DNA of 64,000 nucleotides from contig OX638340.1 in NCBI GenBank assembly GCA_951812955.1, positions 2,048,001-2,112,000 on the forward strand. The letters run 5' to 3'. The notes below the pieces were generated by a model that was not told the origin of the DNA, searched no databases, and was given only the letters and a program-made list of their open reading frames with translations. Below are positions 6,461 to 64,000 of this stretch, one piece after another. How positions within the stretch are numbered: position 1 is the stretch's first letter; each line of letters begins with the position of its first letter. The DNA comes from an uncultured Gemmatimonadota bacterium (GTDB taxonomy: Bacteria; JAAXHH01). The position numbers were made by a program, and so were the translations under genes.

Positions 6461-6528
<68 letters not shown>

Positions 6529-9302: not shown

Positions 9303-9376
9303 CTCGAGACGACGTGGCCGGCGTGATCATCAGACGGCCGTCCATGTCGTCCCGTAATACAGGCTTGGTACGAATA

Positions 9377-9650
9377 CGGTCGTGCTAGACGGGGAGTTAG
9401 CGGTGCCCTGTAACCCGCAATCCGCTACAGCGGGGTCGAATTCCCATCCCAAGGATCGCACTTGCGTCGCCGGTATGCGTTACAGCCGGTATTGAAAGTC
9501 AGGTCCTGCGCAACGTGACAACGCCCAACTCCGTCAGGACCGGAAGGTAGCAGCGGTAAGCGACTGAATCGTGTGCCGCGGGAGCGCCTGGCCGGAGCCG
9601 GCGGTACGGATGCCCCGATACGAGGAGATTCGAGGGTGGGTGCACGACCG
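9377..9650 (+). ncRNA. ffs: signal recognition particle RNA, long (Bacillus-type, Alu-domain-containing) form
   Basis: 5' segment 'CGGTCGTGCTAGACGGGGAGTTAGCGGTGCCCTGTAACCCGCAATCCGC...GAATTCCC' closely matches the B. subtilis scRNA 5' domain; domain IV motif 'GTCAGGACCGGAAGGTAGCAGC' at 9534-9555; 3' 'GCACGACCG' pairs with the 5' end; position just upstream of dnaX is the canonical ffs locus. Confidence 0.8.
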
Positions 9651-13378: not shown

Positions 13379-13380
13379 GA

Positions 13381-15101: not shown

Positions 15102-15131
15102 ATGCCCGGCCGCACTGTAGAAAGGCTACCG

Positions 15132-26201: not shown

Positions 26202-26276
26202 GGGCGATTAGCTCAGTTGGTTCAGAGCGCATGCCTTACAAGCATGAGGTCACTGGTTCGAATCCAGTATCGCCCA
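26202..26276 (+). tRNA. tRNA-Val (anticodon TAC)
   Basis: GGGCGAT acceptor, anticodon loop CTTACAA, GGTTCGAATCC T-loop. Confidence 0.85.
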
Positions 26277-26288
26277 TGCAGCAAATTC

Positions 26289-26363
26289 GGGGGCGTAGTT
26301 CAATCTGGTTAGAGCACTGCCCTGTCACGGCAGAAGTTGCGGGTTCGAGTCCCGTCGTCCCCG
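26289..26363 (+). tRNA. tRNA-Asp (anticodon GTC)
   Basis: anticodon loop CTGTCAC; TTCGAGT T-loop; discriminator G. Confidence 0.85.
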
Positions 26364-26421
26364 TTTATCTCGATCGATAGCCCGTCGAACATGCATGGTT
26401 CCGGCGGGCTATCTTGATTAT

Positions 26422-26505
26422 GCCGGAGTGGTGGAATTGGTAGACGCGAGGGACTCAAAATCCCTTGACCGCAAGGTCGTGTCGGTTCGAGTCCGACCTC
26501 CGGCA
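26422..26505 (+). tRNA. tRNA-Leu (anticodon CAA), long variable arm
   Basis: GCCGGAG acceptor, anticodon loop CTCAAAA, long extra arm. Confidence 0.85.
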
Positions 26506-26596
26506 TCCCGATCCGTCGCCGGACGGGTCCTACCGGGCACGGTAGCATCCCGAATGCGGCACGACCGCCGGTTACCACGCGGATTCCGCTTTTCAG

Positions 26597-35375: not shown

Positions 35376-37361
35376 CTACGCCCATTCGTGCAGGGCGTGT
35401 CCCTGGCCGGGAAACCAGATCCAGTCCACGACAAAACCCAGAAACACCCCCACGCTGTACCCCACGAGCACGCCCCAGGCAAAGGGCTGGGCCCGGCGGT
35501 AGATGGTCACCCCGCCGATCCGCATCAGCAGCATCTTGATCAGCCAGGCCAGGAACAGCGAGAACATGAGCAGGCGGGTCACGTCGGCGAAGGCCACGGT
35601 GAAGCCCACAGGTGCCAGGGGCCAGCCGGGAAACCGGTAGGTCAGGGTCGTCATGACCAGCATGATGACGCCGCCGAGAGCCATGAACAGGAACTCGGGC
35701 GGCTGTAGCTGGTCGGCGTTGCGGATCCACCGCACGATATCGTCGAAGTAGATCTCGTTGATGCCGCCGAAGGCGTCGCGCGTACCGAAGTTGTACGCGC
35801 CGATGGTCGTATTCCCGATGTAGATTGTGTACAGGACGGACGTCAGCATGCTGACAATGAAGGTGACGGTCATGAGGCCGAGAAGCCCCCGCTTGTCCAG
35901 TCGCAGGTCGGACAGTACCTTGTCGGACTGGGCGATGGTGCCGATCCCCATGCCCCGCCAGTTCCGGGCGTAGACGGATCCTAGGCCCAGGGTGGTCAGG
36001 CTCTGGGGATCGATGTTTCCCGAGCCGACGGTCAGTATGGTGAAATGGTGGGCGTTGACCGGAAGGTCCATGAAGGCCAGGCCTGTCTGTGCGATGATCC
36101 GTGCCGTGCCCAGGTACAGGATGAATAAGAACAACAGGTACACGGGCAGCATCTGCCAGGAAAGGCCCGATCCCACGAGCCAGGCCACCAGGTAGACCAG
36201 GCTGCCCGAGAATCCAAGCACGGCCACGCGATAGGACATCAACTCCGTGGCCGGACGCTCGCCGCCACGCAGGGCCTGCCGAAATACATCGGCGATCTGA
36301 GCGCGGGCAGTCCACAGGTGCCAGAATACGAATACGATGAATCCGCCGAAGAACTGGGCCTTGACCACAGCATTCACCCCCACCGGGCTGCCGGAATACT
36401 GGAGCCCGACGCGGTCCAGCAGGCCGCCTTCCAGCACGCCGCACAGGGCGAAGAACCAGAGGCTGAACGTGATCTCCAGCGGCGCCAGGAAAGCGAAGCA
36501 CAGGGCGTAGATGTTGACGCTGACCCTGATGGGATCGATGCCCTCCGCCAGGGTCATCGAACTCTGATAGAGCACGCCAATAGGTATGGGCGAAATGCCG
36601 CCCCAGAACGCGGCGATGTTCCAGATCATCAGGGCCAGGGCGGCGCCGAAGCCCACCTGGAACATGCGGTCGTACACGAAGCCGGGAAAGGTCCGTTCGG
36701 TCCGTTCGTCGTGCCGGATCAGGTCGACGGCCATCTGTACGAGGGGAAAGGAAAGCCGCTCGTGGGCCACCCAGGTCCTCCGCATGATGGTGGACATGCA
36801 TGCGCCCATGAAGAACAGCACGACGAAGAGGGTCAGCCACCAGAAGAGGGGCGGGAGCCAGGGCCCCCAGATGACGTTGCCGGCTCCTTCCGGGATTCCT
36901 TCGTAGAACCACACCAGCGTGTTGCCCTGGCCGCTGACCAGCAGCCAGTCCGGCAGATATTCGAAGAAGGTGGCCTCCCACTGGTTCTCAGGCCGCGCAA
37001 AATAATACGGCGTGGCGATGACCCCCATGAGATAAGCGACCAGGACCTTGCCCGGCACGAGGGAGGAAACGAACATCATCACGAAGACCAGGGCCAGCTC
37101 GCTTCCGCTCAGCACCCAGGCCGGTCTCCATGTTCTCAGCGCCGGGTTGACGATGAGCAGGAGGAAGAAGAAGGGGATCAGGACCGCGATGGGCAGGTGG
37201 GACATCGTCATGCGGGAGGACTGCACGAGGAAGGAGCCGAAGGGGACCCAGATGTTGATCAGGACAGCGAGGGCCAGACCCAGGACTACGGCGCGGCGGG
37301 ATATGCCGGCTGATCGCGATATACCGGGTCGCGGGATACCAATGCGCGGTTTGGTTGCCAT
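35376..37361 (-). CDS. uncharacterised polytopic integral membrane protein (~14 predicted TM helices)
   Basis: 661 aa, highly hydrophobic, Trp-rich helices, no recognisable catalytic motif; divergently oriented from the 1542-aa permease fusion. Confidence 0.6.
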   Translation of the reverse strand: MATKPRIGIPRPGISRSAGISRRAVVLGLALAVLINIWVPFGSFLVQSSRMTMSHLPIAVLIPFFFLLLIVNPALRTWRPAWVLSGSELALVFVMMFVSSLVPGKVLVAYLMGVIATPYYFARPENQWEATFFEYLPDWLLVSGQGNTLVWFYEGIPEGAGNVIWGPWLPPLFWWLTLFVVLFFMGACMSTIMRRTWVAHERLSFPLVQMAVDLIRHDERTERTFPGFVYDRMFQVGFGAALALMIWNIAAFWGGISPIPIGVLYQSSMTLAEGIDPIRVSVNIYALCFAFLAPLEITFSLWFFALCGVLEGGLLDRVGLQYSGSPVGVNAVVKAQFFGGFIVFVFWHLWTARAQIADVFRQALRGGERPATELMSYRVAVLGFSGSLVYLVAWLVGSGLSWQMLPVYLLFLFILYLGTARIIAQTGLAFMDLPVNAHHFTILTVGSGNIDPQSLTTLGLGSVYARNWRGMGIGTIAQSDKVLSDLRLDKRGLLGLMTVTFIVSMLTSVLYTIYIGNTTIGAYNFGTRDAFGGINEIYFDDIVRWIRNADQLQPPEFLFMALGGVIMLVMTTLTYRFPGWPLAPVGFTVAFADVTRLLMFSLFLAWLIKMLLMRIGGVTIYRRAQPFAWGVLVGYSVGVFLGFVVDWIWFPGQGHALHEWA

Positions 37362-37711: not shown

Positions 37712-40700
37712 ATGTGGTCAAAGATAAAAACAGGGATCGGCATCACCATAGCACTGCTGATGTTGTCCTCGGTCACCATATTCCATCCCAAGGATATTAC
37801 CGAGAACATCCTGATGAAGCTGATCTCCCTGCCCGAACCCCAGGAGATTCAGCCCTTCCTTGGCCACGACCGTCCCCTCGAGGAGGCCCTGCGGGCGGTC
37901 AGCGCAGATTCGATCTCAAACACGGTAAAAACCCTCTCTTCCTATACTTCCCGCGTCGTGGGCTACGCCGGCGCCGATTCAGCCTACGAGTACCTGAAGG
38001 CCGAGTTTGAAGAGATCGGACTGGAGGACATCCGCACGGAGACGTTCCCGGTCACGGTGCCTATGGACAAGGGCTCGAAACTGACGGTGCTGGAGACAGG
38101 CGAGGTAATCCCGCTTCATGCCCTCTGGCCGAATCTCGTGCGCACGCCGACCACCCCCAGGGACGGCCTGACCGGCCCGATCGTCTACGGCGGCAAGGGG
38201 GAATTCGGCGAATTCAACGGGTACGACATCCAGGGCAGCGTCGTACTCATGGATTTCGACTCGCAGGACCGGTTCATCAACGCCCGGATGCTGGGCGCCA
38301 GCGCCATCGTATTCTTCGACAACGGACGGGTGACGCGGAGCGAAGCAGAACTCAAATTCATGGGGCTTCCGCTGAACGTACCCCGCTACTGGGTAGACAA
38401 GGCGCACGTACCCGGCCTGCTGGAACTTGCCGAATCCGGAACGAACCAGGTGAATGTCCAGGCCCGTATGGAATGGGAGGTCGTGGAAGGAAAGAACATC
38501 TTCGGCTGGATTCCCGGCCTTGACGAGGAAATGCCAAACGCCCGGGACGAGACCCGCACAAAATGGAAGGACTACACGATCGTCATCGAGTCCTACTATG
38601 ACGCCATGTCGGTGGTCCCGGGTCTGGCGCCCGGTGCGGAAAGCGCCACCGGCGTCGCCGCGCTGCTTGAGGTCGCCAGGGCGATGAAGCGGTACAGTCC
38701 CAAGTATTCGGTGGTCATCCTGGCCACGTCCGCTCATTTCATGGGACTGGAAGGGACGCACAACTGGTTGTACCGGCACGGCAGGGCGAGCAGTTACTTC
38801 ATGTCGAGAATCCCCGAGGAAGACAAGATCGATTTCGACATTTTCTTCGGGATCGATCTCTCAAGCCACGATTCCCGCATCGGAAGTTTCGCCTTCGGCA
38901 CCTTCGACAACGCGGCCTGGGCGACCAACCACTACATCAAGAACATCTTCGCGCCTTATTCGAGGAAATTCGCGGGCTACATCCAGGAGGCCTTCGGGGC
39001 CGGGGCGGACTCGGCCAGGTACGTCAACGCCATCGTGCCGCCGCAGCGAACCTGGAAGGACTTCATGCCCGTCAAGCTGGGGCTGGACAGCGAGGCCGTC
39101 ACGTACTTCGGCAAGAAGGGCATGTCCTTCGTCACACCGAACGGGACCCGTGGCCTGGTGGACACGCCCCAGGACCGATTCGAGTCGGTCAACATCGACA
39201 ATATCACCGAGCAGGCGCGTTCCCTCGCGGTCATGCTCGCCCGGGCCTCCACCGACGGCGAACTCTTCGAGGAGACCAAGCTCAAGATCCAGGACACGGC
39301 CCATGACATGGCGGGCACCGTTTATGAATTCGACCGGGACGTCAATTTCTTCGTCCCCAAGAAACCCATCCCCGGCGCGCTGGTCACCTACTTCAAGAGC
39401 CTGACCAATACGGGCGTGCGGGGCATCCTGATCAACAAGGCCGATTCCCTGGGCCGTTTCAACTTCCGTCCGCTGAAACAGCAGAAGGGTCCGATCAAGC
39501 TTCGGTCGTACGCCCTTGACGACGAGGGCGAGATCATCTACGCGCCGGACCTGGGCCAGGAAGGCGACAAGACCTTCCCCCTGAACGCGGCGAGCGGCGC
39601 AAACGAGAACACCACCCTCCAGATCGTTTTCCGCGCCAAGGCCCTCGACGTGTACGAGATCATCGACTCCCGTTACCTGACCGCGCTGGACCAGTTGACC
39701 GTCCTGGCGCAGAACGACGCCGAGCCCCAGTGGTACGGCCACAGTTACATTGAAAAGCAGAGCGGCTCGGAGGGTCGGACCGTGCCCGCGGCCGTCGTCT
39801 TCGCCAAGCCGGGCCAACACGTCAAGCTGCTCATGAGCACAAGCCTCTTCGGCGTCAAGTACCTGTTGACCAACGCGCCTGATTCCTTCCTGAAGGACCC
39901 CGTCGAGCCGGGCGAAGTGACTCTGGAACTCCTGGAACAGGCCCAGGGACAGGGCTACCCGATCGACCAGGGGCTGATCGTAAATCCGTCCTACCAGGGC
40001 ACGCGGGACATGTGGGTCGTGGACGACGTCCGGCTCAAGCAACTCGCGCGCTTCGGCGTGGAGAACCAGCGCATCGAGCAATTGCACGAACAGGCGCGCG
40101 TCACCCTCCTCGAGGCGGAGGAGCACCTCGCGAACAGGGAGTACGACGCCTTCATCTCCAAGTCGCGTGAGGCCTGGGGCCTCGAGGCGCGGGGCTACCC
40201 GGAGGTCAAGTCCACGGCGGACGACACGGTCAAGGGCGTGATCTTCTATTTCATCCTGCTCATCCCCTTTTCCTTCTTCATGGAACGTCTGGTCTTCGGT
40301 TTTCCGACGATCAACAAGCGGATCTTCGGTTTCTCCGTCTTCTTCATTGCGGTTTTTCTCGTGCTGCAGCTGGTACATCCCGCCTTCAAGCTCAGCACGT
40401 CGCCCTACGTCATCTTCCTGGCCTTCGTCATCTTCGCGCTGGGGACGACCGTGCTCATCATCGTCCTGTCGAAGTTCAACCAGGAAGTACAGAAGATCAA
40501 GCGCGCGCAGACCGGCATGCACGAGGCCGACATCGGCCGGTTGAGCGCCACGGCCGTAGCCCTGTCGCTGGGCGTTTCCAATCTGCGCAAGCGAAAGGTC
40601 CGCACGGCCCTCACGGCGGCCACCATCACGCTGCTCACTTTTACCGTGCTGTCCTTCACGTCCATCACGACGTCGCTGAGATACTACAAGCTGGAACGGT

Positions 40701-42340
40701 ACAACGAACCGACCTATGAAGGGACGCTGGTCCGGGACCGTAACTGGAAAGGGCTGCAGCCCTCCGTATACGATTATCTGAAGAGCACTTTCCAAGACAA
40801 GGCCACGCTGATACCCCGCGCCTGGTACATGTCCCAGGTCAAGGGTGAGAAGGGCTTCTTCGCCTTCTCGTCGCCCAGTTCGTCCCGCGAAAGCTACGTG
40901 AACAGCATCCTGGGACTGACGCCGGACGAGCCAAGGGCGACCGGGCTCGATGATTACCTCCTTGGGGGAAGATGGTTCCTGCCCGGCGAACGGGACGCCG
41001 TCATACTGCCCGACGACGTTGCAAGAGTGGTGGGCATCGCGCCGGAAGACGCTGGTTCCGCCTTCGTCGACATGTTCGGCATGCGGCTGCAGGTCGTCGG
41101 CGTGATCGATTCCCGCCGGTTCAACCAGCTCAAGGACCTGGACGACGAAAAGCTCACGCCCGTCGACCTGGTCCAGGAGAAAGGCAAGATCGCGCAGCGC
41201 ATCGGCGAGGACCCCCGCCTGCAGGCCGAATCCCCGCCTGAAGCCTTCATACACCTCGAATCCAATAACGTCATGATCCTGCCGTACGAGACGGTCATGG
41301 ACCTCGATGGAAAGACCTATTCGGTCGCCATCACCGACTTCCTGGACGAGAGCGGGCAGCCGAACCCCGATTTCGATCGCGATATCGAGGACTTCCTCTC
41401 GCGGGTCGCCATGACCATGTTCGTCGGCAAGGACGGTACCGTAAACGTATACAGTTCCATCGGTTCCACCTCCATCGGCGGCATCGGCAACTTCCTCATC
41501 CCCATCCTCGTCGCCGCCATGATCGTGCTGAACACCATGATGGGCGCGGTCCACGAACGCTTCCGGGAGATCGGCGTCTACAGCTCGGTCGGACTGGCGC
41601 CGAGCCATATCGCGGCGCTGTTCCTGGCGGAGTCCTCCGTCTTTGCCACGGTCGGCGCCGTACTGGGCTACCTGGGGGGACAGACCATCACCCTCGTACT
41701 GTCGAATTACGACATCCTCGCCGGTCTTTCGCTGAACTATTCCTCCCTGTCGGCCGTCTGGTCGGTCGTCGTGGTCATGGCCACGGTGTTCCTGTCGACG
41801 GCCTACCCGGCCAAGAGGGCGGCGGACATGGCCGTGCCTGACGTGGGCCGGGAATGGAAATTCCCCGAGCCCGATGGAGACGACTGGAGCTTCGATTTCC
41901 CCTTCACCATCGGAAGCGTCGAGGTACTGGGCATGTACGCCTATCTCACGCGGGTCTTCGAATCCTACGAGGAGGGTTCCCTGGGCGCGTTCGTCACGGA
42001 GAACGTCCGGTTGACCGCCGTGGAAGGCCCATCGGACCAACCCATGTACCACATCTCGATGATGACCTGGCTCGCGCCCTACGACCTGGGTATCAGCCAG
42101 AAGGTTTCTCTCAGTGCCGCGCCGGCGGAAAATGAAAAAGATCTCTACGCCGTGTGGGTGGACATCCACCGCGAGAGCGGCGACGTGGCGTCCTGGCAGC
42201 GCATTAACCGGCGCTTCCTGAGCGTGCTGCGCAAACGCTTCCTGGTCTGGCGCACCCTTTCCCAGGATCTCAAGAACGAATACGCGGCGACTGGGAGGGA
42301 AGCGACCAAAAAGACGCAAGAAGCGGAACTGCCCGTATGA
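37712..42340 (+). CDS. giant fusion protein: N-terminal signal-anchor plus degenerate M28-peptidase-like domain, central unknown domain and 3 TM helices, C-terminal MacB/FtsX-type permease module
   Basis: 1542 aa. The M28-like region ('AESATGVAALLEVARAMKR...VVILATSAHFMGLEGTHNW') has the canonical Asp/Glu-Glu metal ligands substituted. FtsX TM1 is at 'VRTALTAATITLLTFTVLSF', followed by a large extracytoplasmic domain. The FtsX C-terminal 3-TM bundle is at 'GNFLIPILVAAMIVLNTMMGAVHERFREIGVYSSVGLAP...AVWSVVVVMATVFLSTAYPAKRAA'. Confidence 0.8.
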   Translation: MWSKIKTGIGITIALLMLSSVTIFHPKDITENILMKLISLPEPQEIQPFLGHDRPLEEALRAVSADSISNTVKTLSSYTSRVVGYAGADSAYEYLKAEFEEIGLEDIRTETFPVTVPMDKGSKLTVLETGEVIPLHALWPNLVRTPTTPRDGLTGPIVYGGKGEFGEFNGYDIQGSVVLMDFDSQDRFINARMLGASAIVFFDNGRVTRSEAELKFMGLPLNVPRYWVDKAHVPGLLELAESGTNQVNVQARMEWEVVEGKNIFGWIPGLDEEMPNARDETRTKWKDYTIVIESYYDAMSVVPGLAPGAESATGVAALLEVARAMKRYSPKYSVVILATSAHFMGLEGTHNWLYRHGRASSYFMSRIPEEDKIDFDIFFGIDLSSHDSRIGSFAFGTFDNAAWATNHYIKNIFAPYSRKFAGYIQEAFGAGADSARYVNAIVPPQRTWKDFMPVKLGLDSEAVTYFGKKGMSFVTPNGTRGLVDTPQDRFESVNIDNITEQARSLAVMLARASTDGELFEETKLKIQDTAHDMAGTVYEFDRDVNFFVPKKPIPGALVTYFKSLTNTGVRGILINKADSLGRFNFRPLKQQKGPIKLRSYALDDEGEIIYAPDLGQEGDKTFPLNAASGANENTTLQIVFRAKALDVYEIIDSRYLTALDQLTVLAQNDAEPQWYGHSYIEKQSGSEGRTVPAAVVFAKPGQHVKLLMSTSLFGVKYLLTNAPDSFLKDPVEPGEVTLELLEQAQGQGYPIDQGLIVNPSYQGTRDMWVVDDVRLKQLARFGVENQRIEQLHEQARVTLLEAEEHLANREYDAFISKSREAWGLEARGYPEVKSTADDTVKGVIFYFILLIPFSFFMERLVFGFPTINKRIFGFSVFFIAVFLVLQLVHPAFKLSTSPYVIFLAFVIFALGTTVLIIVLSKFNQEVQKIKRAQTGMHEADIGRLSATAVALSLGVSNLRKRKVRTALTAATITLLTFTVLSFTSITTSLRYYKLERYNEPTYEGTLVRDRNWKGLQPSVYDYLKSTFQDKATLIPRAWYMSQVKGEKGFFAFSSPSSSRESYVNSILGLTPDEPRATGLDDYLLGGRWFLPGERDAVILPDDVARVVGIAPEDAGSAFVDMFGMRLQVVGVIDSRRFNQLKDLDDEKLTPVDLVQEKGKIAQRIGEDPRLQAESPPEAFIHLESNNVMILPYETVMDLDGKTYSVAITDFLDESGQPNPDFDRDIEDFLSRVAMTMFVGKDGTVNVYSSIGSTSIGGIGNFLIPILVAAMIVLNTMMGAVHERFREIGVYSSVGLAPSHIAALFLAESSVFATVGAVLGYLGGQTITLVLSNYDILAGLSLNYSSLSAVWSVVVVMATVFLSTAYPAKRAADMAVPDVGREWKFPEPDGDDWSFDFPFTIGSVEVLGMYAYLTRVFESYEEGSLGAFVTENVRLTAVEGPSDQPMYHISMMTWLAPYDLGISQKVSLSAAPAENEKDLYAVWVDIHRESGDVASWQRINRRFLSVLRKRFLVWRTLSQDLKNEYAATGREATKKTQEAELPV

Positions 42341-55012: not shown

Positions 55013-55309
55013 TTGGTTCGTAGACCATGGATGGACGTGACAATCAAGGCCGCGCTGATTGGCGCCGCAGTTCTGGTATATCTGGACCTGAAGGCCGAGA
55101 TCAGATCCGTACGGGTCGACCTGGGAACCAGGATCGACAGGTTGGAAACCAGGATGGGAACCAGGATCGGCAGGTTGGAAACCAGGATGGACAGGTTGGA
55201 AACCAAGGTGGACGGGTTGGAAACCAAAATCGACGAAGTACGGGGACATTTCAGGTTCGAAATGACCGAGCCAAACGAAAATCCGCCTCCCACGGACGTG
55301 AATCAATAG
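55013..55309 (+). CDS. small membrane-anchored coiled-coil protein built from 11-residue repeats (GTRIDRLETRM)
   Basis: N-terminal TM helix 'VTIKAALIGAAVLVYL'; 33-bp DNA tandem repeats 55120-55240 encoding (x-R-[IL]-[DG]-R-L-E-T-[RK]-[MV]-[GD]) units. Confidence 0.45.
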   Translation: MVRRPWMDVTIKAALIGAAVLVYLDLKAEIRSVRVDLGTRIDRLETRMGTRIGRLETRMDRLETKVDGLETKIDEVRGHFRFEMTEPNENPPPTDVNQ

Positions 55310-55361
55310 CCTTCCTCAACCGGAGAAACCGGGGAATCGCAACAGGCTCGTCGACCCCGTC

Positions 55362-56279
55362 TCACACCTCCAGGACGGCGGCCAGGGTCTCCCCTTCATG
55401 CACGCGGTTGTAAGTCCGCAGGACCAGCACGTGACCGGACTGCGTGCACACGATTTCGTCCCGCCGGTCGCCCAGCAAGTCGGTGACCACGCCGAAAACG
55501 TCTCCCGGCGCGACGCGGTCCATCAGTTCCACCCAGGGCTCGAAGAACCCTGAGAACGGCGACGGATAGTTTAATTGGATATGGCCGGCCCCTTCCCGGT
55601 CGTCTTCCACCGTATGAATGATCCTCGATGGCGGCTGGTCCCGCTCGATCATGCCCAGCACGCCCATGACGTTAAGGCAACCTTCGTAGTACTGTTCAAC
55701 CCCCTCGGGATCGCAGTCCCCGGCACCCAACCATTCCGAGTAGATCGCAGGTATGCGGGCGTCGCGTGCTATGGACAGCGTGCGGCCGTCGTGGCCCGCG
55801 TACGTACCCCAGACGATCGGCATGTTGAAGGCCCGGGCCATCTCGCGCTGGGTCTCAAGGACCCCGGCATCGGGATGCAGCATGTACCCCACCGTCGGAT
55901 AGAACCTCGATATGAGCCCACCGCTGTGCAGATCAATCAGGTAGTCGGCCTCGCGGATCATTGCGCTTACCGCGTGGGCCACGCGCTCGGTGATGGTGCC
56001 GTCCTCCCGGCCCGGGCACGTGCGGGCCAGATCCAGGCCGTCCTCGGCGGTTCGCTGCCCGCGCCAGTACGCCGCCTCGTTGACGACGGGCACCAGGGTG
56101 ATGCTTCCCCGTAGATCATCGGGGTCCAGGGCATCTTTCAGGCGCCGGATGGTCCACATGGATTCGAATTCGTCGCCGTGGACGCCTCCGAGTATGAGCA
56201 GTTTCGGTCCGAGCGCCTTTCCTTTGATTGTGATGGACTTCAGCGTGACGGGGCCTGACATCTCGACGGGGCCTGACAT
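55362..56279 (-). CDS. succinylglutamate desuccinylase/aspartoacylase (AstE/AspA) family zinc deacylase
   Basis: 'ILGGVHGDEFE' and 'DLHSG' zinc-binding motifs; N-terminus carries an 18-bp tandem duplication (MSGPVEMSGPV). Confidence 0.75.
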   Translation of the reverse strand: MSGPVEMSGPVTLKSITIKGKALGPKLLILGGVHGDEFESMWTIRRLKDALDPDDLRGSITLVPVVNEAAYWRGQRTAEDGLDLARTCPGREDGTITERVAHAVSAMIREADYLIDLHSGGLISRFYPTVGYMLHPDAGVLETQREMARAFNMPIVWGTYAGHDGRTLSIARDARIPAIYSEWLGAGDCDPEGVEQYYEGCLNVMGVLGMIERDQPPSRIIHTVEDDREGAGHIQLNYPSPFSGFFEPWVELMDRVAPGDVFGVVTDLLGDRRDEIVCTQSGHVLVLRTYNRVHEGETLAAVLEV

Positions 56280-56487
56280 GATGTTCTCCTTGATTTATAT
56301 TCCCGGATATCCGGATTTAGTATCTACAGCATCTTCCCAGAATAGTTCTGTTTCAAAAACGGAGAAGGTCCGAACACAACGACTTGCGCATCGGGTGGAA
56401 ACTCGCCCGTAGCTGCGCGGAGGAATATACCGGCTCGGGCGGGACGGATCAAGCGATGCACGCCGGCCGTACCAAACTGGAGAGGCC

Positions 56488-59220
56488 ATGATCTCGATCC
56501 CCCTCGAGTTCTCCCATGATACCACGCGGAACCCGAAGTGCTGGCCCGTGACCCGCGGCGTCCCCATACTCGAAGGCGCGCTCCTCGCTACGGATGGACT
56601 GCACGTCGTGCATCCCGGCGGCGTCCGGCTTCCCGCCCAGTTCCGGGTACTCGGCCGATGGCCGGACGGATCGGTGAAGTGGGTGCTCGTGGATTTCCAG
56701 GCGGATGCCGACCCATCGGGCAGGGTGGTATATACCCTGACCGATGAAGCGGCCGGGTGTACGGGCGACCTTCCAGCGCCGCCACCCACCAATACCGTGC
56801 GGATCACAGAAACAGACCAGGACCTCCACGTGGTTACGGGTGCGCTGAGTTTCAAGATAAGCCGCCACCAATACGGACTTTTCCATTCCGTGTCGTTCGC
56901 CCACGCCCCGGATGAAACGCCCAACCGGGCGAACCCGATCCCCGGCCAAGGTGGCGACGCCTGGGTACGGATCAGCGAAGGCGCCTCCGACGGGAGTCTG
57001 AAACGCCGGCTGTACGGTCCGGGCGGCCACTGCCGGGCATCCCTGGCCGGTGACTCCTACGAGGTGACGGTCGAGGAACATGGCCCAATGCGCGCCGTCA
57101 TCCGGATGGAGAGCGCCCTGGAAGCCGACATCCCCATGCACCATTACGCCGGGTACAGGCCGGTGCGTTGTATAACCCGGATTCACGCCTATGCAGGCCA
57201 CGCCTTGGTCCGGATTCTGCAGACCCACGTCTTTACCTGCAATCCACGGGAAGTGGAAATCGAAGACCTGGCCCTGAATGTTCCCGCCCCCTGCGCCGGA
57301 ACCGGTCTTGGCTACGCTTTCGGACTGTATGGGGTCGAGGCGGGAACGCTCGATTCGGATGAACTGCTGAAAATCGCCCAGAAGAAAGATGACTTGGTGC
57401 AGGTATCCCGCGGTCGACCAGGATGTGAAACCACGATCGCGGAGGGCGAAACCTGCGAAGGCTGGGCGACGCTCGGAGACGGGATATCTGGAGTAGGCGT
57501 CGCCTGCCGGAACATGGCGGAGGAGCATCCGCGGGCCATCGAAGCCACCGGTGACGGCCGTGTTACCCTGTACGCGCGCCACGACCCGGATGGCGCCCGC
57601 CTGTCCCTGGCACGTTACTCCGAAGAGGTCTCATGGCACGAAGGAGAAGGGGTATATGCCGACGGTACGGGCATAGCGAAGACCTCCGAGTTCTTCGTAC
57701 AATACTTCGAGGAAGATCGACGGGACAAGGGGGAGAATACGCAGCGGGACGAGGCGATTGAAATACTCCGATGCGCCCTGTCGCAACCCCACGTATCGGT
57801 TCCACCGGCGTGGATGGCCCGATGCGAGGCCGCGGGTGGATTCGCGGTCCCAAGTTTCCCGGAAGCTGGCGACCGGGTTGACCAAGGGAACCCGACAGAG
57901 GGTGACCAGTCAGGCCCTGAAGCGTGTAATCAAGCGGACTCTAAACCGGGCGGTAGAGTGGCCCTGAAAGTGGGCGACCAGGCGGATCCGAGAGCGGAGC
58001 GGAAACGGGGAGGAGCGGCCGATCCTGAGATCCTGCCAGCCGCGGACCGCATGCTGACGGGCTTTGCCGACTGGCTCGCACGAAACGTCCAGCTTGGACG
58101 CTGGTACGGGTACCTGGACTACGGGGACGTGCGCGCTACCTGGGATGAAGAGGAAGATGAGTGGATGGACCGGGGCCGCTGGGGCTGGTGCAACAGCGAG
58201 TGGGACCCCCGCCACGCGATCTGGATACAGTACCTGCGCACCGGCGACCCGCACTACTTCAGCCTGGGCGAAGCCATGACCCGCCACTCCATGGACGTAG
58301 ACACGTGCCACTGGCATCCCTTCAGGCCCTACATGGTTGGTGGCGGCTACCGCCATGGGGTTGGCCACTTCAGCGACGAGCCCTGCGCTTCCCATACCTT
58401 CATCGACAACTGGATGGACCACTACCATCTGACCGGAGATGGCAGGACCCTGGAAGTCCTTCGCGAAGCGGGCGGGTTCTTCCTGCGGTACAGGTGGACC
58501 GAGGAGCCATCCTTCAGTTTCAGCTTGCGGTCCATTGCTAATGTATTGCGCGGACTGCTTTACGTATATGACGCCACCGGCGAGGAACGCTTCCTGCGGC
58601 GGGCGGAGGAAGTGTATACCATTATCGCAAGAGGACAGAATAATGACGGGAGCTGGCACAAGCGCTTCCAGATCGCGACCCCAGACCGGCTTCCGCAACG
58701 GCTTCCCTACGGCATGGCGACGGAAGGCACTACGCTGGCGGTCGAAATGGGTACGGCCGCGCCCTTCACAGACGACGAGTACAGGGGACTTGGCGGCCCC
58801 TTCACCCGGTTGATCCGCGACCTTCCGTACGAGGAGCAGAAGGGGTACCAGACCCACTACCTGATGGTCGGACTGGAACTGATGCACCGGATAACCGGCC
58901 GCGCTGATGTCGCCGAGACCTATGTGCGGGGAGTGGACTGGTTCTGCGGCTTTCCCGAAACCTTCGCGACCGACCGGCCATTGAAGGAACATTACGGCGG
59001 CATCCTCTGCCGTCACCTGGGCTACGCCTATCGCCTGACGGGGGACAGCAGCTACCTGGAAACCGGCATGAAGATCCTGGAATTGCTTATCAATGCGCAG
59101 GACTGGAGCGACGATCCCCGGAAGCGCGGATCCGTGGGCATGAGTCCCATGCACCTTAGCTTGTTGTTCTTCGGGGTGCCGAGTTTTCTTACCGAACTAC
59201 GTGGAATAGACCATTGTTGA
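56488..59220 (+). CDS. large hypothetical cytoplasmic protein (910 aa), probable N-terminal beta-rich domain plus C-terminal alpha/alpha-toroid-like domain
   Basis: GGAGAGG RBS; no signal peptide; 'QNNDGSW' motif reminiscent of QxxDGxW toroid repeats; no confident family assignment. Confidence 0.65.
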   Translation: MISIPLEFSHDTTRNPKCWPVTRGVPILEGALLATDGLHVVHPGGVRLPAQFRVLGRWPDGSVKWVLVDFQADADPSGRVVYTLTDEAAGCTGDLPAPPPTNTVRITETDQDLHVVTGALSFKISRHQYGLFHSVSFAHAPDETPNRANPIPGQGGDAWVRISEGASDGSLKRRLYGPGGHCRASLAGDSYEVTVEEHGPMRAVIRMESALEADIPMHHYAGYRPVRCITRIHAYAGHALVRILQTHVFTCNPREVEIEDLALNVPAPCAGTGLGYAFGLYGVEAGTLDSDELLKIAQKKDDLVQVSRGRPGCETTIAEGETCEGWATLGDGISGVGVACRNMAEEHPRAIEATGDGRVTLYARHDPDGARLSLARYSEEVSWHEGEGVYADGTGIAKTSEFFVQYFEEDRRDKGENTQRDEAIEILRCALSQPHVSVPPAWMARCEAAGGFAVPSFPEAGDRVDQGNPTEGDQSGPEACNQADSKPGGRVALKVGDQADPRAERKRGGAADPEILPAADRMLTGFADWLARNVQLGRWYGYLDYGDVRATWDEEEDEWMDRGRWGWCNSEWDPRHAIWIQYLRTGDPHYFSLGEAMTRHSMDVDTCHWHPFRPYMVGGGYRHGVGHFSDEPCASHTFIDNWMDHYHLTGDGRTLEVLREAGGFFLRYRWTEEPSFSFSLRSIANVLRGLLYVYDATGEERFLRRAEEVYTIIARGQNNDGSWHKRFQIATPDRLPQRLPYGMATEGTTLAVEMGTAAPFTDDEYRGLGGPFTRLIRDLPYEEQKGYQTHYLMVGLELMHRITGRADVAETYVRGVDWFCGFPETFATDRPLKEHYGGILCRHLGYAYRLTGDSSYLETGMKILELLINAQDWSDDPRKRGSVGMSPMHLSLLFFGVPSFLTELRGIDHC

Positions 59221-59293
59221 TTCCCGGCCTATTGGTTACCTTGAAAACAACTCCCCTTCGTTCGTCGGTAAAGCGAATCGACGATTCCACATC

Positions 59294-61768
59294 TTGATTC
59301 GTCCACGGAGGCGCCACGTGTACGTCCATCTGCTCCTGACGATCGCCGCACTATCGCTGAGCCTCCCCGGCCATTCCCAAGCCCAGGTCGTCCTTCCGGA
59401 ATCGGGCGCAGCCGTTGAGAACCTCTCCGCCCTCGACACGGGCAAATCACTCTATCAACAGGCACGCTTCGACGCAGCCCTTGAACGCCTTCGGCAGGCG
59501 GTGCGCGAGGACGGGAGATCTGCTCACGCCCGTTATTGGCTCGGTATGGCCTGGTTTGCCCTTGGAAACATTGACGAAGCATTGAAAGCGTTCAGACGGG
59601 CCGTCCAATTGGACAAGAATTGGGCGCCTGGCCACGTCGGTATGGGTATGGTTTACATGAGCCTGGCCAACAGGCGCCTGGATGCTCGTAGAGCCTTTCG
59701 AAAGGCCGTCGAGGCGGATCCTGAAAACACGGACGTTCAGTACAACCTGGGCATGACCTACATGGACCAGGAACGCACAGGCCAGTTGATTGGCAGTGAC
59801 CGTGACGGCAGGAAGTATTTCCTGCAAGCCGTAGCACTGGATCCTTCCCACCCGGACGCTTACTTCCAACTAGGCCGATGTTATGACAGTCCTGAGGTAC
59901 CGGAGAGTGACAAGGCGATCTCTGCTTACATCAGACAATACCGTGTCAATCCCAATCACAGCGAGGCGTTGCTGCGCTTTGCCAACGCAAGCCATCGCTC
60001 CGAACGATACGATCTGGGCGCCGAGGAACTCAGAGCACTCGTCCGGGACTTGGGAGATGACACGCCGGACAGGATCCACGCCATGCTTTCCCAGTTCGAG
60101 GTGCTGGCACTCGGATCAGACCAGCAGTACGATCGACTTCAGAAGGCGCTGGAGTCCTACATCTCACAGTTGGACGCCGATGAACAGGAAGTGTACAGGG
60201 ATTTGACTCATGTCGCCCCGCCGGACGAACTGAAAGCCTGGGAAGCCGCATCCGGACCGGAACGCGACGCGTTCTGGCAGGCCTTCTGGAACGAGCGGGA
60301 CGCCAACCCGGCCACGATCGAAAACGAACGGTTGGTGGAGCACTACAGACGTGTAATGCACGCCCGGATCCATTTTTCGGAGAAGCGATACCCCTACGAC
60401 CGCCGTGGTGAGATTTACGTGAGATACGGTCCGCCGGATGACCGGCGTCGTTTCGTGGTCAGGGCGAACGAGGACCCGTATAAGTCATTCCAGTCTTCCG
60501 ATGACCCGGCGGTGGACGCAATCCGGGAACAGAACCTTCAATTCGGCTACCAGTTGCAGGTCAATCGTGGCGAAGTGTCGAAAATCCTGGATAGCGATAA
60601 GGCAAAACGACTTGGATTCGGGACGGAGACAATGGCTGATGAGCTATCTGCTAAGTCGTTGGATCAGATTTTAGCAGAAATGGCAGTAAAACAGAGAAGA
60701 GAGATGGGATCCTTGTTTATTGCAGAGAGCTGGGTGTACGTACCACATAGACTGGAACTGTTCTTCGTCGACCAGATGGGTGGCGGCCGATACGACTATC
60801 CCTTGGAAACCCTGACCATTGATGAAAGCAGCGGTTTGACAACACTTCCCGGTATGGCGAGTAGCCAGGATATGAACCACCCCCGTCGCCTAGCTTCTGC
60901 ACTTATCGCAAGCAGTCCCACAGACTACCGACACGACTTTGGCGGAGATCCTCTCGAATACGCTTTCGACGCCGTCTCCTTCCGCGGGGACGGCGGCGTT
61001 ACGGAGGTGGATCTCTCCTACAGTATTCCCGTCTGGCAGTTCGGCGACATCACCGACGACAAGGGCGACCGGACCTGGCTGGACAACCAGGTTACCCTTC
61101 GTGACTCGATCCACACGCCTGCCTTCTCCCGCAAGTTCCGGTTTGGACCCGTTGCCCGGCCCGAACGGCAACTGGGGAGCCAGGTGTTTCAGGGAGCCGC
61201 GTTCACGCTGGCAGCGAATCTGGTTATGCCTGCCGGTACTTTCGCGGTTGCTGTGGAAATGCGGGACGAAGCCACGCAGCGAATTGGCGTTTACAAAAAA
61301 CCGGTATCCATCTCAGACTACCGCGGCAGCGGCCTGCTCATCAGCGATCTCAAGCTATCGACGGGAATCACGCCTGCAACGACGGCGGGGCCCTTCGTGC
61401 GCAAGGGACTGAATGTCGTGCCCAATCCCGGACGGCTTTACGCTCGGGGGCAGTTAGTTTACGTGTATTACGAGGTGTACAACCTGGATATGGACGAGGG
61501 CGGCCGCACTTCCTACGAGACGCTCTACGAAATCACGCCGCTGGGCATGCCCGCACTGAGGAATCGCCGGGCCAGAAGGCCGGACGACATCCAGACGGTG
61601 ATGTCGTTCTTCGAGGGCGAGGGGAGTTCATCGGAAGAGGCTGAATACACAGCCCTGGACACCACGGATCTCGAGGCCGGGGAGTATGTATTGACGGTGA
61701 CGCTGACGGACCGCGGCGCGGACAGGTCCGTCACCAGGTCGGTCAACTTTATGGTGGTAGTGCAGTAG
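59294..61768 (+). CDS. secreted TPR-repeat plus GWxTD-domain protein
   Basis: signal peptide 'VYVHLLLTIAALSLSLPGHSQA'; TPR repeats ('ARYWLGMAWFALGNIDEALKAFRRAVQLD'); GWxTD-family core 'RGEIYVRYGPPD'. Confidence 0.75.
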   Translation: MIRPRRRHVYVHLLLTIAALSLSLPGHSQAQVVLPESGAAVENLSALDTGKSLYQQARFDAALERLRQAVREDGRSAHARYWLGMAWFALGNIDEALKAFRRAVQLDKNWAPGHVGMGMVYMSLANRRLDARRAFRKAVEADPENTDVQYNLGMTYMDQERTGQLIGSDRDGRKYFLQAVALDPSHPDAYFQLGRCYDSPEVPESDKAISAYIRQYRVNPNHSEALLRFANASHRSERYDLGAEELRALVRDLGDDTPDRIHAMLSQFEVLALGSDQQYDRLQKALESYISQLDADEQEVYRDLTHVAPPDELKAWEAASGPERDAFWQAFWNERDANPATIENERLVEHYRRVMHARIHFSEKRYPYDRRGEIYVRYGPPDDRRRFVVRANEDPYKSFQSSDDPAVDAIREQNLQFGYQLQVNRGEVSKILDSDKAKRLGFGTETMADELSAKSLDQILAEMAVKQRREMGSLFIAESWVYVPHRLELFFVDQMGGGRYDYPLETLTIDESSGLTTLPGMASSQDMNHPRRLASALIASSPTDYRHDFGGDPLEYAFDAVSFRGDGGVTEVDLSYSIPVWQFGDITDDKGDRTWLDNQVTLRDSIHTPAFSRKFRFGPVARPERQLGSQVFQGAAFTLAANLVMPAGTFAVAVEMRDEATQRIGVYKKPVSISDYRGSGLLISDLKLSTGITPATTAGPFVRKGLNVVPNPGRLYARGQLVYVYYEVYNLDMDEGGRTSYETLYEITPLGMPALRNRRARRPDDIQTVMSFFEGEGSSSEEAEYTALDTTDLEAGEYVLTVTLTDRGADRSVTRSVNFMVVVQ

Positions 61769-61925
61769 AGAAGTGAGTTTTCCGATATGCTGCGGGAAGC
61801 GTACCTTTACAATGAATCGCACTGGATTAGCGGGAAGCGACCCCATCAGCGAATCGTGAAGGATCAGCGAATCGCCTGAATAAAGTAAGGCGCGTCAGAA
61901 TATGGGCAACGGCCCGCCGTTCCCG

Positions 61926-64000
61926 CTAGTCCTGCATTTCGACGGACTTCCCGTCACCCGCTGCCAACTCAAGCGTCGAATCGAACACCGCCTCGCCCGA
62001 ATCTCCCAGTCGCAGCCGCGATAGCGCAAGCGCGCCGTGCAGGACGCTCAACTCGGCCTGCAGTCCTTCCCCGACACGCGACACAACGCACACGCCCCAC
62101 GCGAATCCGGTCGACCAGAAGTATCTGCCCGACCGGGCGGTCAAGGTCATGGTCTTCGTGACCGCCGAGTAGTTAAAACCGGTCAACGCAAGGTGGGCGG
62201 CCCAGGCGGCCATGGCCCGGGCGTAGTGATGGCCGCACTCGGCCTCGTCGAAGGGGTTCCTCCTCCGTCCGTCGTACCGATCGCGGATGTCCTGGATGCA
62301 CGAAATGCCCTCGTCCGCCATGCCCTCGTAGATCATGCCGATGGCGGCGGTGTATTCAAAACCGGTCATGACTTCGGTGAAGTACGAGAAGGGATTTTCG
62401 GGCCGGTCCTTCGGGTAGGACGCCATGAGCAGGGCCGATTCGTCGCCGAGGACGTAGGAGCGCATAACGTTCGTGTGCGCGTGGAAGTCCTCGAGCCGGT
62501 TGTACTTCAGGATGCTCTGCAGCGAACTACGGACTTTGCCGGAATCCGCGAGGTATCCCAGGCCACAGACATGGGCCATGTACTGGCCGACGAGCTGGTC
62601 CACCAGGCAGCCGGAACCGAGTTGGTAATCCGGATTTCCCAGATCCTTCGGCCCCATCCCCACCGTCAGGCCTTCCGCTACATCCTCCGCCCGCTCGGGC
62701 GCACGGATCTCGTGTTCGTAGTACTCCCCGTTGAAGAGGTTCGCGTCGGTCCAGGTGCGGCCGCGCTCGTATAGGTCCCGGCATTCCCGCGCGAAGTCGC
62801 CGTCCTCCAGATAGCGGGCCATTTCCTCCGCGGCCCGGAGGGCGCCCAGGTACCAGAACTCCATCTGGGGATTCGGACCGAAGTATTCGACGTCCATGGT
62901 ATTGTGCTGGCAGCCTTCCATCACGCCGTCGCAGTCGGCGTCCCACCCGCCGGGTATCCAGCAGAACGCCAGCGCCTTCTTGACCCCCGGCCATAGCGCT
63001 CGAAGCTGCTCGTCGTCACCCGACAGCTGCCAGTCCCGGTACATCTTCATTACGCAACCCATCTGGCCGTCGGCCGCCGCGCGATTGAAGTTGCGGGCCC
63101 GGGCCAGCGGCAGCCAGACGCGGAAGCTCATCAGGCCGTTCTCGTCGGTGGCGTGGGCAAATTCCACCTCGCGCATGGTCTGCGTCAGGTCGCCGAAGAG
63201 GAAGGCCGTGGACTGCTCGTAGTTCCATACGTGGGTGCAGGAACCCAGGCAGCACCCCGCCTCGTCGTGGCATCCCTCCCAGCCGTAGAAGCGGCCATCG
63301 GGCGTGCGGAAGCAGGTCTGGCTCCGCAGCGTGCTCAGGTTGAACAATGCCGCCTCCTTGACCACCTCCGGCAGGTCCGATCCGCAGAACGCCTCGACGA
63401 ACCGGAGCGTATTCACTTCCAGGCTTTCCAGATCGGGCACGACTTGCTCCACCACGTCCCAGGCGTCCTCGAACCGCGTCGTATAGTAGTTCCCGATCCG
63501 GTCTCCCGTGTCACAGCAGTCGTCGCCGCCCGCGCAGCAGTCACTGTTGTCGTCGCAACAGTCGTCGCTGCTGTCGTCCCCGTCCTCGCAACAGCCCTCA
63601 TCGCTCTCGCAATCGTCCGGACCGCCGTCACAACAGGCGTTTTCTTCGGTGGTCTCCGTATCACCGCCGACTGGCAGGTCTTCCTTCGTCGCCGGTGTCC
63701 ACGTGTACCGGTTGGGGAAATGCCAGGCCAGAACGAAGGTCACGCTTGCCGTTTTTTCCGGCGGCAGGTCGACCCGGGTCGCCAGGGAGGCGATGGGGCG
63801 GTTGTTGTTGCCGGCGTCCCGGTCCGAGAGCATGCCGTCCGCGCTGAAATCGTCCCAGAAGTCGAGTAGCGGGGTACCCCAGCGGTCGTCGCGCCAGGCA
63901 GTCCGGTAGCTGACCGTCTCCGCCGTGGTCGCCAGCGCCATCGTGCCCCACTGCGCGGCCTGACGGTCCACGCCCTTCGATGACATGAAGAGTCCGCGGT
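61926..64000 (-). CDS. glycoside hydrolase family 116 (GBA2-type beta-glucosidase/glucosylceramidase-like), N-terminus beyond window end; contains Cys/Asp-rich insertion
   Basis: C-terminal catalytic domain aligns to GBA2/DUF608 ('DCDGVMEGCQHNTMDVEYFGPNPQMEFWYLGALRAAEEMARYL', 'LFNGEYYEHE'); ORF open at window edge; 'CCDGGPDDCESDEGCCEDGDDSSDDCCDDNSDCCAGGDDCCDTGD' insertion. Confidence 0.75.
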   Translation of the reverse strand, partial: RGLFMSSKGVDRQAAQWGTMALATTAETVSYRTAWRDDRWGTPLLDFWDDFSADGMLSDRDAGNNNRPIASLATRVDLPPEKTASVTFVLAWHFPNRYTWTPATKEDLPVGGDTETTEENACCDGGPDDCESDEGCCEDGDDSSDDCCDDNSDCCAGGDDCCDTGDRIGNYYTTRFEDAWDVVEQVVPDLESLEVNTLRFVEAFCGSDLPEVVKEAALFNLSTLRSQTCFRTPDGRFYGWEGCHDEAGCCLGSCTHVWNYEQSTAFLFGDLTQTMREVEFAHATDENGLMSFRVWLPLARARNFNRAAADGQMGCVMKMYRDWQLSGDDEQLRALWPGVKKALAFCWIPGGWDADCDGVMEGCQHNTMDVEYFGPNPQMEFWYLGALRAAEEMARYLEDGDFARECRDLYERGRTWTDANLFNGEYYEHEIRAPERAEDVAEGLTVGMGPKDLGNPDYQLGSGCLVDQLVGQYMAHVCGLGYLADSGKVRSSLQSILKYNRLEDFHAHTNVMRSYVLGDESALLMASYPKDRPENPFSYFTEVMTGFEYTAAIGMIYEGMADEGISCIQDIRDRYDGRRRNPFDEAECGHHYARAMAAWAAHLALTGFNYSAVTKTMTLTARSGRYFWSTGFAWGVCVVSRVGEGLQAELSVLHGALALSRLRLGDSGEAVFDSTLELAAGDGKSVEMQD

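Follow-up and report, generated by a model that had tools for sequence, protein, structure and literature searches.

A PL26-like toroid protein and a TPR-GWxTD protein encoded side by side in an uncultured Gemmatimonadota bacterium

The two genes and their start sites

An uncultured Gemmatimonadota bacterium (GenBank assembly GCA_951812955.1, contig OX638340.1) carries two large, co-directional genes whose products are considered here: a 910-amino-acid (aa) protein (gene 1) and, directly downstream, a protein of up to 824 aa with tetratricopeptide repeats (TPR) and a GWxTD domain (gene 2). Both lie in a stretch of 64,000 nucleotides (nt), positions 2,048,001 to 2,112,000 of the contig, which is called the window throughout and has a G+C content of about 62%; coordinates given without a locus designation are those of the window.

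56488..59220, + strand: gene 1, 910 aa, open reading frame (ORF) with ATG start
59294..61768, + strand: gene 2, ORF, 824 aa from TTG 59294; 816 aa from GTG 59318, the more likely start

A preliminary description of this DNA, made from the letters alone, had placed two large ORFs at 56488-59220 and 59294-61768, and both are confirmed. Their G+C contents at third codon positions, 0.73 for the 910-aa gene and 0.68 for the 824-aa gene, are of the coding type for a genome of 62% G+C. The true start of gene 2 is probably GTG 59318 rather than TTG 59294, because a Shine-Dalgarno sequence, GGAGG, lies 6 nt 5' of the GTG and the public gene call of the product (P0121) is 816 aa long. The intergenic gap is 73 nt (59221-59293) with the TTG start and 97 nt with the GTG start. 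A promoter and terminator scan of 55300-62200 yielded sites no more numerous than in shuffled sequence, and a search of the window for further copies of either family found none.

The 910-aa protein and polysaccharide lyase family 26

The 910-aa protein is no orphan, because three PcRGLX-like Pfam families match it above their cut-offs: PF19501 (PcRGLX_1st, 31.5 bits; cut-off 22.1), PF21345 (PcRGLX_2nd, 40.8 bits; cut-off 23.5) and PF21346, a toroid (89.2 bits; cut-off 23.8). The statement in the preliminary description that neither protein has an assigned function therefore needs qualifying for this one. PcRGLX is a Penicillium chrysogenum enzyme of polysaccharide lyase family 26 (PL26), a family of exo-acting lyases that free unsaturated GalA-Rha (galacturonic acid-rhamnose) from rhamnogalacturonan I (RG-I) (PMC13501991, PMC8787155). 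The reaction is a beta-elimination (EC 4.2.2.24). Its structures (5xq3, 5xqg, 5xqj and 5xqo) are those of Kunishige et al. 2018 (FEBS Lett 592:1378), as cited in PMC13501991. The two proteins have the same three-domain layout (PF19501 + PF21345 + PF21346) and nearly the same length, 906 aa in PcRGLX and 910 aa here.

56545..56703, + strand: N-terminal RIFT-barrel domain, residues 20-72 (PF19501; pairs with PcRGLX residues 22-127 in the profile search)
56800..57717, + strand: central beta-sandwich domain, residues ~105-410 (PF21345; all-beta in the AlphaFold2 (AF2) model)
57622..57690, + strand: motif EEVSWHEGEGVYADGTGIAKTSE, residues 379-401, with W383-H384-E385 in place of PL26 Y437-E438-D439
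57850..58032, + strand: low-complexity insertion, residues ~455-515 (predicted local distance difference test (pLDDT) <50, without secondary structure; unaligned in hhalign)
58033..59202, + strand: C-terminal (alpha/alpha) toroid, residues ~516-905 (PF21346; helical hairpins in the AF2 model; column conservation)

PcRGLX is the best match of the 910-aa protein by sequence, by profile and by fold. In a search of Protein Data Bank (PDB) sequences it is the sole strong match (5xq3, 906 aa; phmmer E = 3.9e-18), and a profile of 14 family members, which aligns to parts of each of the three domains, matches the same entry at E = 1.2e-40. When the 910-aa family is compared by hhalign with an alignment of PL26 relatives, which their sources name 'exo-rhamnogalacturonan lyase family', 'YetA-like' or 'Tat pathway signal sequence domain protein', the probability is 99.9 over 348 aligned columns at 24% identity. 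An AF2 model of the protein, built from a 14-sequence alignment (pLDDT 58; predicted TM-score 0.52), retrieves PcRGLX chains from the PDB as all of the top ten Foldseek matches, at full length and with E values of ~1e-16 to 1e-18 (best 5xqo, E = 4.4e-18); the next fold follows at E 1e-7. As judged from these sequence and model comparisons, the protein is a clear but distant homologue of the PL26 exo-rhamnogalacturonan lyase. The remote homology search and structure prediction that the preliminary description had proposed lead to a family with a crystallised member; taken with the lack of a conserved linkage to GWxTD genes described below, this is essentially the outcome that tells against its proposal of a shared role.

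Within that account, several structural details hold. The proposed C-terminal alpha/alpha toroid is borne out by PF21346 and by the fold match to the PL26 structures, and the QxxDGSW-type motif is found as QNNDGSW at residues 717-723 (nt 58636-58656). The toroid also carries motifs common to PL26, namely YGD 545-547, NSE 569-571, TRH 598-600, D605, H608, RH 622-623 and H627; written as patterns, those shared with PcRGLX are WYGF/YLDYGD, W-x-NSE, LRTG, EA-TRH-x-x-VD-x-x-H and RH-x-V-x-H.

The differences from PcRGLX extend beyond the low identity (~24% over the alignable core). In the substrate complex 5xqo the wild-type PcRGLX sequence EITYEDWEPG reads EITFEDWEPG; over the segments that align with the family profile, this Y437F change (chain numbering) is the sole difference between the two chains. 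Tyr437 and the Glu that follows it are invariant among 18 PL26 relatives. HMMER and hhalign both align the invariant Y437-E438-D439 of PcRGLX with W383-H384-E385 of the 910-aa protein, and Trp occupies the position of W383 in every one of the 184 non-identical sequences of the 910-aa family. The family has invariant or near-invariant residues of its own, comprising C568, C607, C820, C841 and several His; C568 pairs with an Asp of PcRGLX, and C607 with a Tyr.

Location and gene context differ as well. PcRGLX and the bacterial PL26 relatives, among whose source names is 'Tat pathway signal sequence domain protein', are exported, whereas the 910-aa protein is predicted to be cytoplasmic and without an export signal: as the preliminary description had stated, there is no signal peptide, nor is there a transmembrane segment, in that no N-terminal hydrophobic segment was found and no 19-residue window of the protein has a mean Kyte-Doolittle value above 1.4, and the homologues share its start position. 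An insert of about 60 aa (residues 455-515), charged and predicted to be disordered, separates the beta-sandwich from the toroid; it is another difference from PcRGLX, is peculiar to the clade of the window, and is missing from the ~845-aa homologues in other phyla (the distant homologues as a whole are ~840-870 aa long). A homologue scan that used one genome per species gave 142 confirmed relatives, from which 80 loci were kept, and in none of these 80 loci were pectin or RG-I utilisation genes seen near family members. Because the invariant Tyr, the export and the pectin gene context of PL26 are all missing, the 910-aa family is best regarded, on its sequences, as a PL26-like family or subfamily of its own, still uncharacterised, and its members as neither PL26 nor GH127 enzymes. 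That the protein is a plain bacterial PL26 exo-rhamnogalacturonan lyase acting on pectin RG-I oligosaccharides is therefore very unlikely: the common architecture, the near-identical length and the highly significant profile and fold matches are what such an enzyme would be expected to show, but its lyase Tyr would have become Trp in every family member, its identity to PcRGLX over the core is low, it has neither an export signal nor pectin-utilisation genes nearby, and isolate names point to marine sponges or corals as possible sources.

The GH127 assignment has a basis in a second toroid family. PF07944, the catalytic domain of glycoside hydrolase (GH) family 127, scores 31.3 bits (cut-off 24.9) over residues 786-862, which correspond to profile positions 124-202 of 376; this match is precomputed for nearly all homologues, one of which (P0092) is named 'glycoside hydrolase family 127 protein' by its source. 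In addition, the search of PDB sequences matches 5mqo (E = 0.004), one of the GH127/DUF1680 beta-L-arabinofuranosidases, named 'non-reducing end beta-L-arabinofuranosidase' by its depositors. The likeness consists of the (alpha/alpha) toroid and of significant similarity along a short segment, residues 786-879, that spans two or three helical hairpins. In contrast, only about one fifth of the catalytic domain is matched, and the N-terminal domains and architecture of the 910-aa protein follow PcRGLX. Of the 376 profile positions only 79 are covered, and beyond the match the protein continues for no more than 48 residues, so that ~170 profile positions lack a collinear counterpart; the match therefore reflects toroid similarity at the level of hairpins and not membership.

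The GH127 enzyme HypBA1 uses a catalytic Cys nucleophile with a Zn(Cys3Glu) site. In the 910-aa protein, C568 and C607 lie outside the region that aligns to GH127. It is nonetheless conceivable, if improbable, that the 910-aa protein is not a lyase and acts as a cysteine glycosidase of the GH127 type, or as another hydrolase or epimerase that uses the invariant Cys and His. Four Cys and several His are (near-)invariant, C568 and C607 are not present in PcRGLX, and the loss of the lyase Tyr is compatible with a changed chemistry; these points add to the Pfam and PDB matches, but the latter are partial, as described above, and the match to PcRGLX is stronger by many orders of magnitude. The other toroid-level matches (GH76, epimerases and GH47) are, like GH127, weak. 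Heparinase II/III, LanC and terpene cyclase folds, which are also toroid candidates, were rejected; none is among the Pfam, PDB-sequence or fold matches of the protein.

The TPR-GWxTD protein

The product of gene 2 was described beforehand as an envelope protein with a signal peptide, TPR and a GWxTD domain, and the N-terminal hydrophobic stretch, the TPR models and TIGR04514 (57 bits) agree with this. Residues are numbered on the 824-aa form.

59294..59383, + strand: signal peptide, residues 1-30, probable cleavage SQA|Q (read from the sequence; hydrophobic stretch at residues 9-27)
59426..60073, + strand: TPR array, residues ~45-260 (TPR_16 E = 5.3e-24; pLDDT 80-93; TPR-superhelix fold matches)
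60191..60481, + strand: divergent GWxTD domain, residues 300-396 (TIGR04514, 57 bits; cut-off 28)
60386-60439, + strand: RYPYDRRGEIYVRYGPPD, residues 365-382, at the expected place of the eponymous motif (sequence)
60956..61759, + strand: C-terminal beta-sandwich region, residues ~555-822 (AF2 strands, pLDDT 60-90)

Besides TPR_16, eleven TPR models of Pfam exceed their cut-offs, and the pLDDT is ~90 over most of residues 45-260. The GWxTD domain is divergent. The core motif given in the preliminary description, RGEIYVRYGPPD, is present at residues 371-382, but neither the literal string GW.TD nor a relaxed version of it was found in the protein. The literal motif is replaced by RYPYD at residues 365-369, where the wider family has the consensus PWDRRG within PWDRRGEVYIRYGEPD, and the Pfam model PF20094 stays below threshold (17.2 bits; gathering cut-off 26.9). 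What the protein has in common with the GWxTD family (TIGR04514; PF20094) is the core NERL-EHYRRV ... DRRGE-Y-RYG-PD, predicted export, and the combination of TPR with a C-terminal beta region. In the AF2 model the GWxTD region and the linker after it are poorly modelled, and two beta-sandwich-like domains follow (residues ~555-822). A Foldseek search with the whole model returned TPR proteins only and no match for the C-terminal module.

The arrangement of these parts is common. When residues 271-824 were searched against 1.84 billion cluster representatives, 5,419 of them matched at E <= 1e-3 and 1,737 at E <= 1e-10; the matching segment is nearly always C-terminal, in proteins 550-1,250 aa long, and the beta-sandwich region is conserved jointly with the GWxTD domain. 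Among 48 sampled relatives, TIGR04514 was passed by all 48, TPR were present in 40, and PF20094 matched 19 at E <= 0.001. Given these thousands of clusters and the frequencies of TIGR04514 and TPR, TPR + GWxTD + beta-sandwich is a standard, very widespread architecture, and within the GWxTD family the 824-aa protein is nothing out of the ordinary, although its sequence is divergent. Periplasmic or outer-membrane TPR scaffold lipoproteins of the PilF/PilW, Tgl, YbgF and LapB types resemble it in having a TPR array and predicted export, and give partial matches below threshold. They differ in that their equivalog cut-offs are not reached, in that the 824-aa protein has no lipobox Cys after its signal peptide, and in that they have no counterpart of the large C-terminal module of GWxTD and beta-sandwich. 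A full-text search of one literature library found no paper that uses the term 'GWxTD'. The TPR-GWxTD family, with thousands of clusters and several paralogues per genome, is very large and entirely uncharacterised.

The paralogues, which likewise pass TIGR04514, occur in at least three contexts per genome. The first, seen in L083-L085, consists of a Big_2 protein gene, then a MacB/FtsX permease gene, then TPR-GWxTD, convergent with M29 peptidase and GH106 genes. In the second (L081 and L087), a gene without a Pfam match precedes TPR-GWxTD beside genes for GT9, a lipid A acyltransferase and PfkB. The third (L086) is a tandem TPR-GWxTD pair after genes for a histidine kinase and two response regulators.

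As to the first context, TPR-GWxTD is repeatedly found just 3' of MacB/FtsX-type ATP-binding cassette (ABC) genes on the same strand (L083 5503-10433, L084 2545-10451 and L085 3510-8442), and the same holds for the displaced orthologues of gene 2 in L002 (15000-20786) and L016 (16486-22229). A duplicated MacB_PCD/FtsX permease of ~790-840 aa is encoded directly upstream of TPR-GWxTD in L083, L085 and L002; an ABC ATPase gene lies between permease and GWxTD gene in L016, and a second TPR gene in L084. Permeases of the MacB/FtsX type are possibly numerous in such genomes, and the base rate may explain the association. In the second context, which is one of lipopolysaccharide (LPS) genes, the gene that precedes the GWxTD paralogue encodes 642-783 aa (L081 5647-7998 and L087 3934-5862, with gaps of 2 nt and 138 nt, respectively). 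Its products have no Pfam match on record, and a direct scan of the L081 protein gave no Pfam or NCBIfam match; this protein may be an uncharacterised partner of the GWxTD paralogue. The tandem members in L086 (3462-8433) are P0146 (74% identical) and P0171 (60% identical), and in L084 (4989-10451) two TPR proteins are encoded in tandem, one a GWxTD member (P0212) and the other a TPR protein. The tandem TPR genes suggest local duplication of the family. The MacB/FtsX and LPS contexts hint at a role of TPR-GWxTD in the envelope or in export, and not in glycan catabolism; the placement after MacB/FtsX ABC genes offers a lead for work on the envelope of Gemmatimonadota and Acidobacteriota.

Gene order around the 910-aa family and independence of the two genes

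The preliminary description had attributed to the two proteins a shared glycan- or lipid-related role, based in part on a neighbouring GH116 gene. That gene does adjoin gene 2, and the nearest genes on the two sides of the pair are as follows.

61926..63998, - strand: GH116-like glycosidase gene, cut by the window end (PF04685 E = 3.9e-37, PF12215 E = 2.6e-17); convergent
55362..56279, - strand: AstE/AspA-family deacylase gene (PF24827 E = 4.6e-25); divergent, upstream neighbour

In all, the neighbours of gene 1 in the window comprise AstE-like, DAO, ABC transporter, creatininase and GH116 genes. It has been possible to follow this arrangement across the 80 loci, in which the non-TPR residues 271-824 of the 824-aa protein were searched for by tblastn and the order of ORFs was then compared. 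A GWxTD gene lies directly downstream of the 910-aa homologue in eight of them (L003, L004, L005, L007, L013, L015, L017 and L018), and all eight belong to the closest clade, which is defined by at least 68% identity to the 910-aa protein and has 16 loci with usable downstream sequence. In the other eight informative loci of this clade the pairing is lost, decayed or displaced. In L006, in L009-L011 and in L001, which at 83% identity is the closest relative, no GWxTD gene was found within 10 kb; in L006 the GH116 gene directly follows the 910-aa homologue. The 3.94-Mb genome of L009 does have a GWxTD member, P0233, located ~180 kb from its 910-aa homologue. In L002 and L016 the GWxTD gene is 5.7-7.1 kb away, with ABC transporter genes between in the former, and two-component and ABC genes in the latter. 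Outside the clade, a GWxTD gene is adjacent in none of 63 more distant loci (Latescibacterota, Poribacteria and other Gemmatimonadota); two of the distant loci have weak GWxTD matches (28-36% identity), on the opposite strand and ~8 kb off.

In one locus of the closest clade, L008, all that is left of the GWxTD gene is a piece of its C-terminal part, situated between the genes for the 910-aa homologue and GH116 (12835-15329). By tblastn it corresponds to residues 622-822 of the full protein (352-552 of the query) at 79% identity, in ORFs of 283 and 171 aa, and it looks like gene decay in a variable slot.

The genes upstream of the pair are held in place to the same degree. The AstE gene has a tblastn match in 17 loci and is the immediate upstream ORF in 15, and the AstE/DAO/ABC-transporter block as a whole is as syntenic within the clade as the GWxTD gene; therefore, the adjacency of the 910-aa and GWxTD genes reflects clade-wide gene order around a variable slot, and not a selected pairing. 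A conserved link of the 910-aa gene to GH116 was considered and rejected, since GH116 homologues adjoin in the closest clade alone (12 loci). The 910-aa gene and the GWxTD gene are chance neighbours without conserved linkage. Thus the linkage across genomes that the preliminary description proposed to check amounts to eight of 16 loci in one clade and none of 63 elsewhere, which leaves little of the shared role. The proposal would be that of a functional pair, perhaps together with GH116, in which an envelope-located TPR-GWxTD protein and a cytoplasmic toroid enzyme serve the same glycan or lipid. It can appeal to the common strand, the short gap, the adjacency in eight loci and the GH116 gene next door in 12, and we regard it as unlikely, given that the pairing is lost, decayed or interrupted in half of the informative loci and absent from the distant ones, that the upstream block is equally syntenic, that the GWxTD paralogues occupy unrelated contexts, and that in L009 the GWxTD member is so far from the 910-aa homologue. 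Neither annotation nor further study should treat the two genes as one system.

The 910-aa family itself is found widely. A protein identical to the gene 1 product is encoded on a 3.81-Mb contig, and its close relatives carry the label Gemmatimonadetes. By record title, the 80 loci come from metagenome-assembled genomes (MAGs) of Gemmatimonadota, Latescibacterota, Poribacteria, Handelsmanbacteria and Zixibacteria, and family members are 47-54% identical across phyla. Several of the MAG isolate names resemble those of what we take to be sponge or coral holobiont bins. Two copies of the family were observed on separate contigs in one Poribacteria MAG (L022 and L028) and in one Gemmatimonadaceae MAG (L058 and L074); therefore, the family has paralogues.

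When the ORFs of the 80 loci were called, clustered and tabulated, no universal neighbour emerged: the commonest neighbour cluster occurs in 31 of the 80. A GFO/IDH/MocA oxidoreductase gene is next on the same strand in ten loci, with gaps of 12-187 nt, and in most of these there is a LarA-like gene upstream, with aldehyde dehydrogenase and heparinase II/III-like genes near. A sulfatase gene is next on the same strand in eight loci (gaps of -56 to 140 nt). In Poribacteria the 910-aa homologue comes last in a series of same-strand genes (BNR, UxuA, hydantoinase B and PQQ-propeller), and in another group, of Latescibacterota, genes for DUF6785, an MFS_2 sugar transporter and a sulfatase converge on it. 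These contexts are suggestive of, and fit, cytoplasmic processing of acidic or sulfated sugars. The neighbour evidence goes no further than suggestion, because sulfatases are very abundant in such genomes (PMC7081726); oxidoreductases are probably very abundant in them too.

The DUF6785 family is also represented in the window, where a 660-aa protein with DUF6785 and DUF6784 is encoded at 35376-37361 (- strand). In ten other loci, mostly of Latescibacterota and including L021 and L061, a DUF6785 gene lies directly downstream of the 910-aa homologue and convergent to it, with gaps of -4 to 48 nt; in nine Latescibacterota loci of this kind, MFS_2 sugar transporter and/or sulfatase genes come next.

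Taken together, these comparisons argue that the locus, a slot that varies and is specific to one marine clade of Gemmatimonadota-like bacteria, probably contains two functionally independent genes, one for a PL26-like enzyme and the other for an exported TPR-GWxTD protein. Several observations weigh against this reading. The adjacency is kept in about half of the closest clade; the genes are co-directional and 73-97 nt apart with no convincing terminator in the gap, and their co-transcription in the source genome is possible. On the side of the enzyme, the AF2 model is poor at residues 535-573 and 599-637, around conserved motifs; the catalytic essentiality of Tyr437 in PL26 is itself inferred, from the Y-to-F substrate complex and the invariance of the residue; and some of the associations with sulfatase and oxidoreductase neighbours may reflect base rate.

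In the reading that we favour, the gene 1 product is a cytoplasmic enzyme composed of a RIFT barrel, a beta-sandwich and an (alpha/alpha) toroid, a member of a highly conserved sister family of PL26 that keeps most of the polar toroid residues common to PL26, with an invariant Trp for the Tyr and invariant Cys and His of its own. Provided that it is catalytically competent, it may act in the cytoplasm, as a lyase or a hydrolase, to trim an oligosaccharide that has been imported and is acidic and possibly sulfated, and its substrate, and possibly its chemistry, would be unlike those of PcRGLX. The gene 2 product, which is exported, would serve as a scaffold in the envelope, with its TPR array as the binding site for other proteins.

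A bolder proposal, put forward tentatively and with some doubt, is that the 910-aa family is a new carbohydrate-active family that has split from PL26. Its members, ~50% identical across the MAGs of Gemmatimonadota, Latescibacterota and Poribacteria, would by the change of Tyr to Trp and the invariant Cys/His cluster have acquired another mechanism, possibly metal- or Cys-dependent or one that operates together with the adjacent GFO/IDH/MocA oxidoreductase, and would act on sulfated or acidic oligosaccharides of host or algal origin in the cytoplasm of marine, often host-associated bacteria. Should the protein indeed be catalytically active with its Trp standing where the lyases have Tyr, it would represent a new specificity or mechanism among enzymes built of a beta-sandwich and a toroid, and glycan breakdown in abundant uncultured phyla of marine symbionts would gain a cytoplasmic step. 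Neither the name 'exo-rhamnogalacturonan lyase' nor 'GH127' should be transferred to the 910-aa protein by homology alone.

Other features were observed elsewhere in the window. A 1,542-aa ORF at 37712-42340 (+ strand) is an unusual fusion, in which residues 287-442 form a Peptidase_M28 domain and residues 1263-1372 an FtsX-like permease domain. A large bacterial signal recognition particle RNA (160 bits) is encoded at 9380-9647 (+ strand), just upstream of dnaX (9703-11721), and there are seven tRNA genes, at 5850-5923, 6439-6526, 9049-9134, 9230-9303 and 26202-26508, which include a Val-Asp-Leu cluster. Finally, a 194-aa ORF at 12794-13378 (+ strand) has an odd G+C content by codon position in comparison with its neighbours (0.46, 0.36 and 0.89 at the first, second and third positions, respectively).

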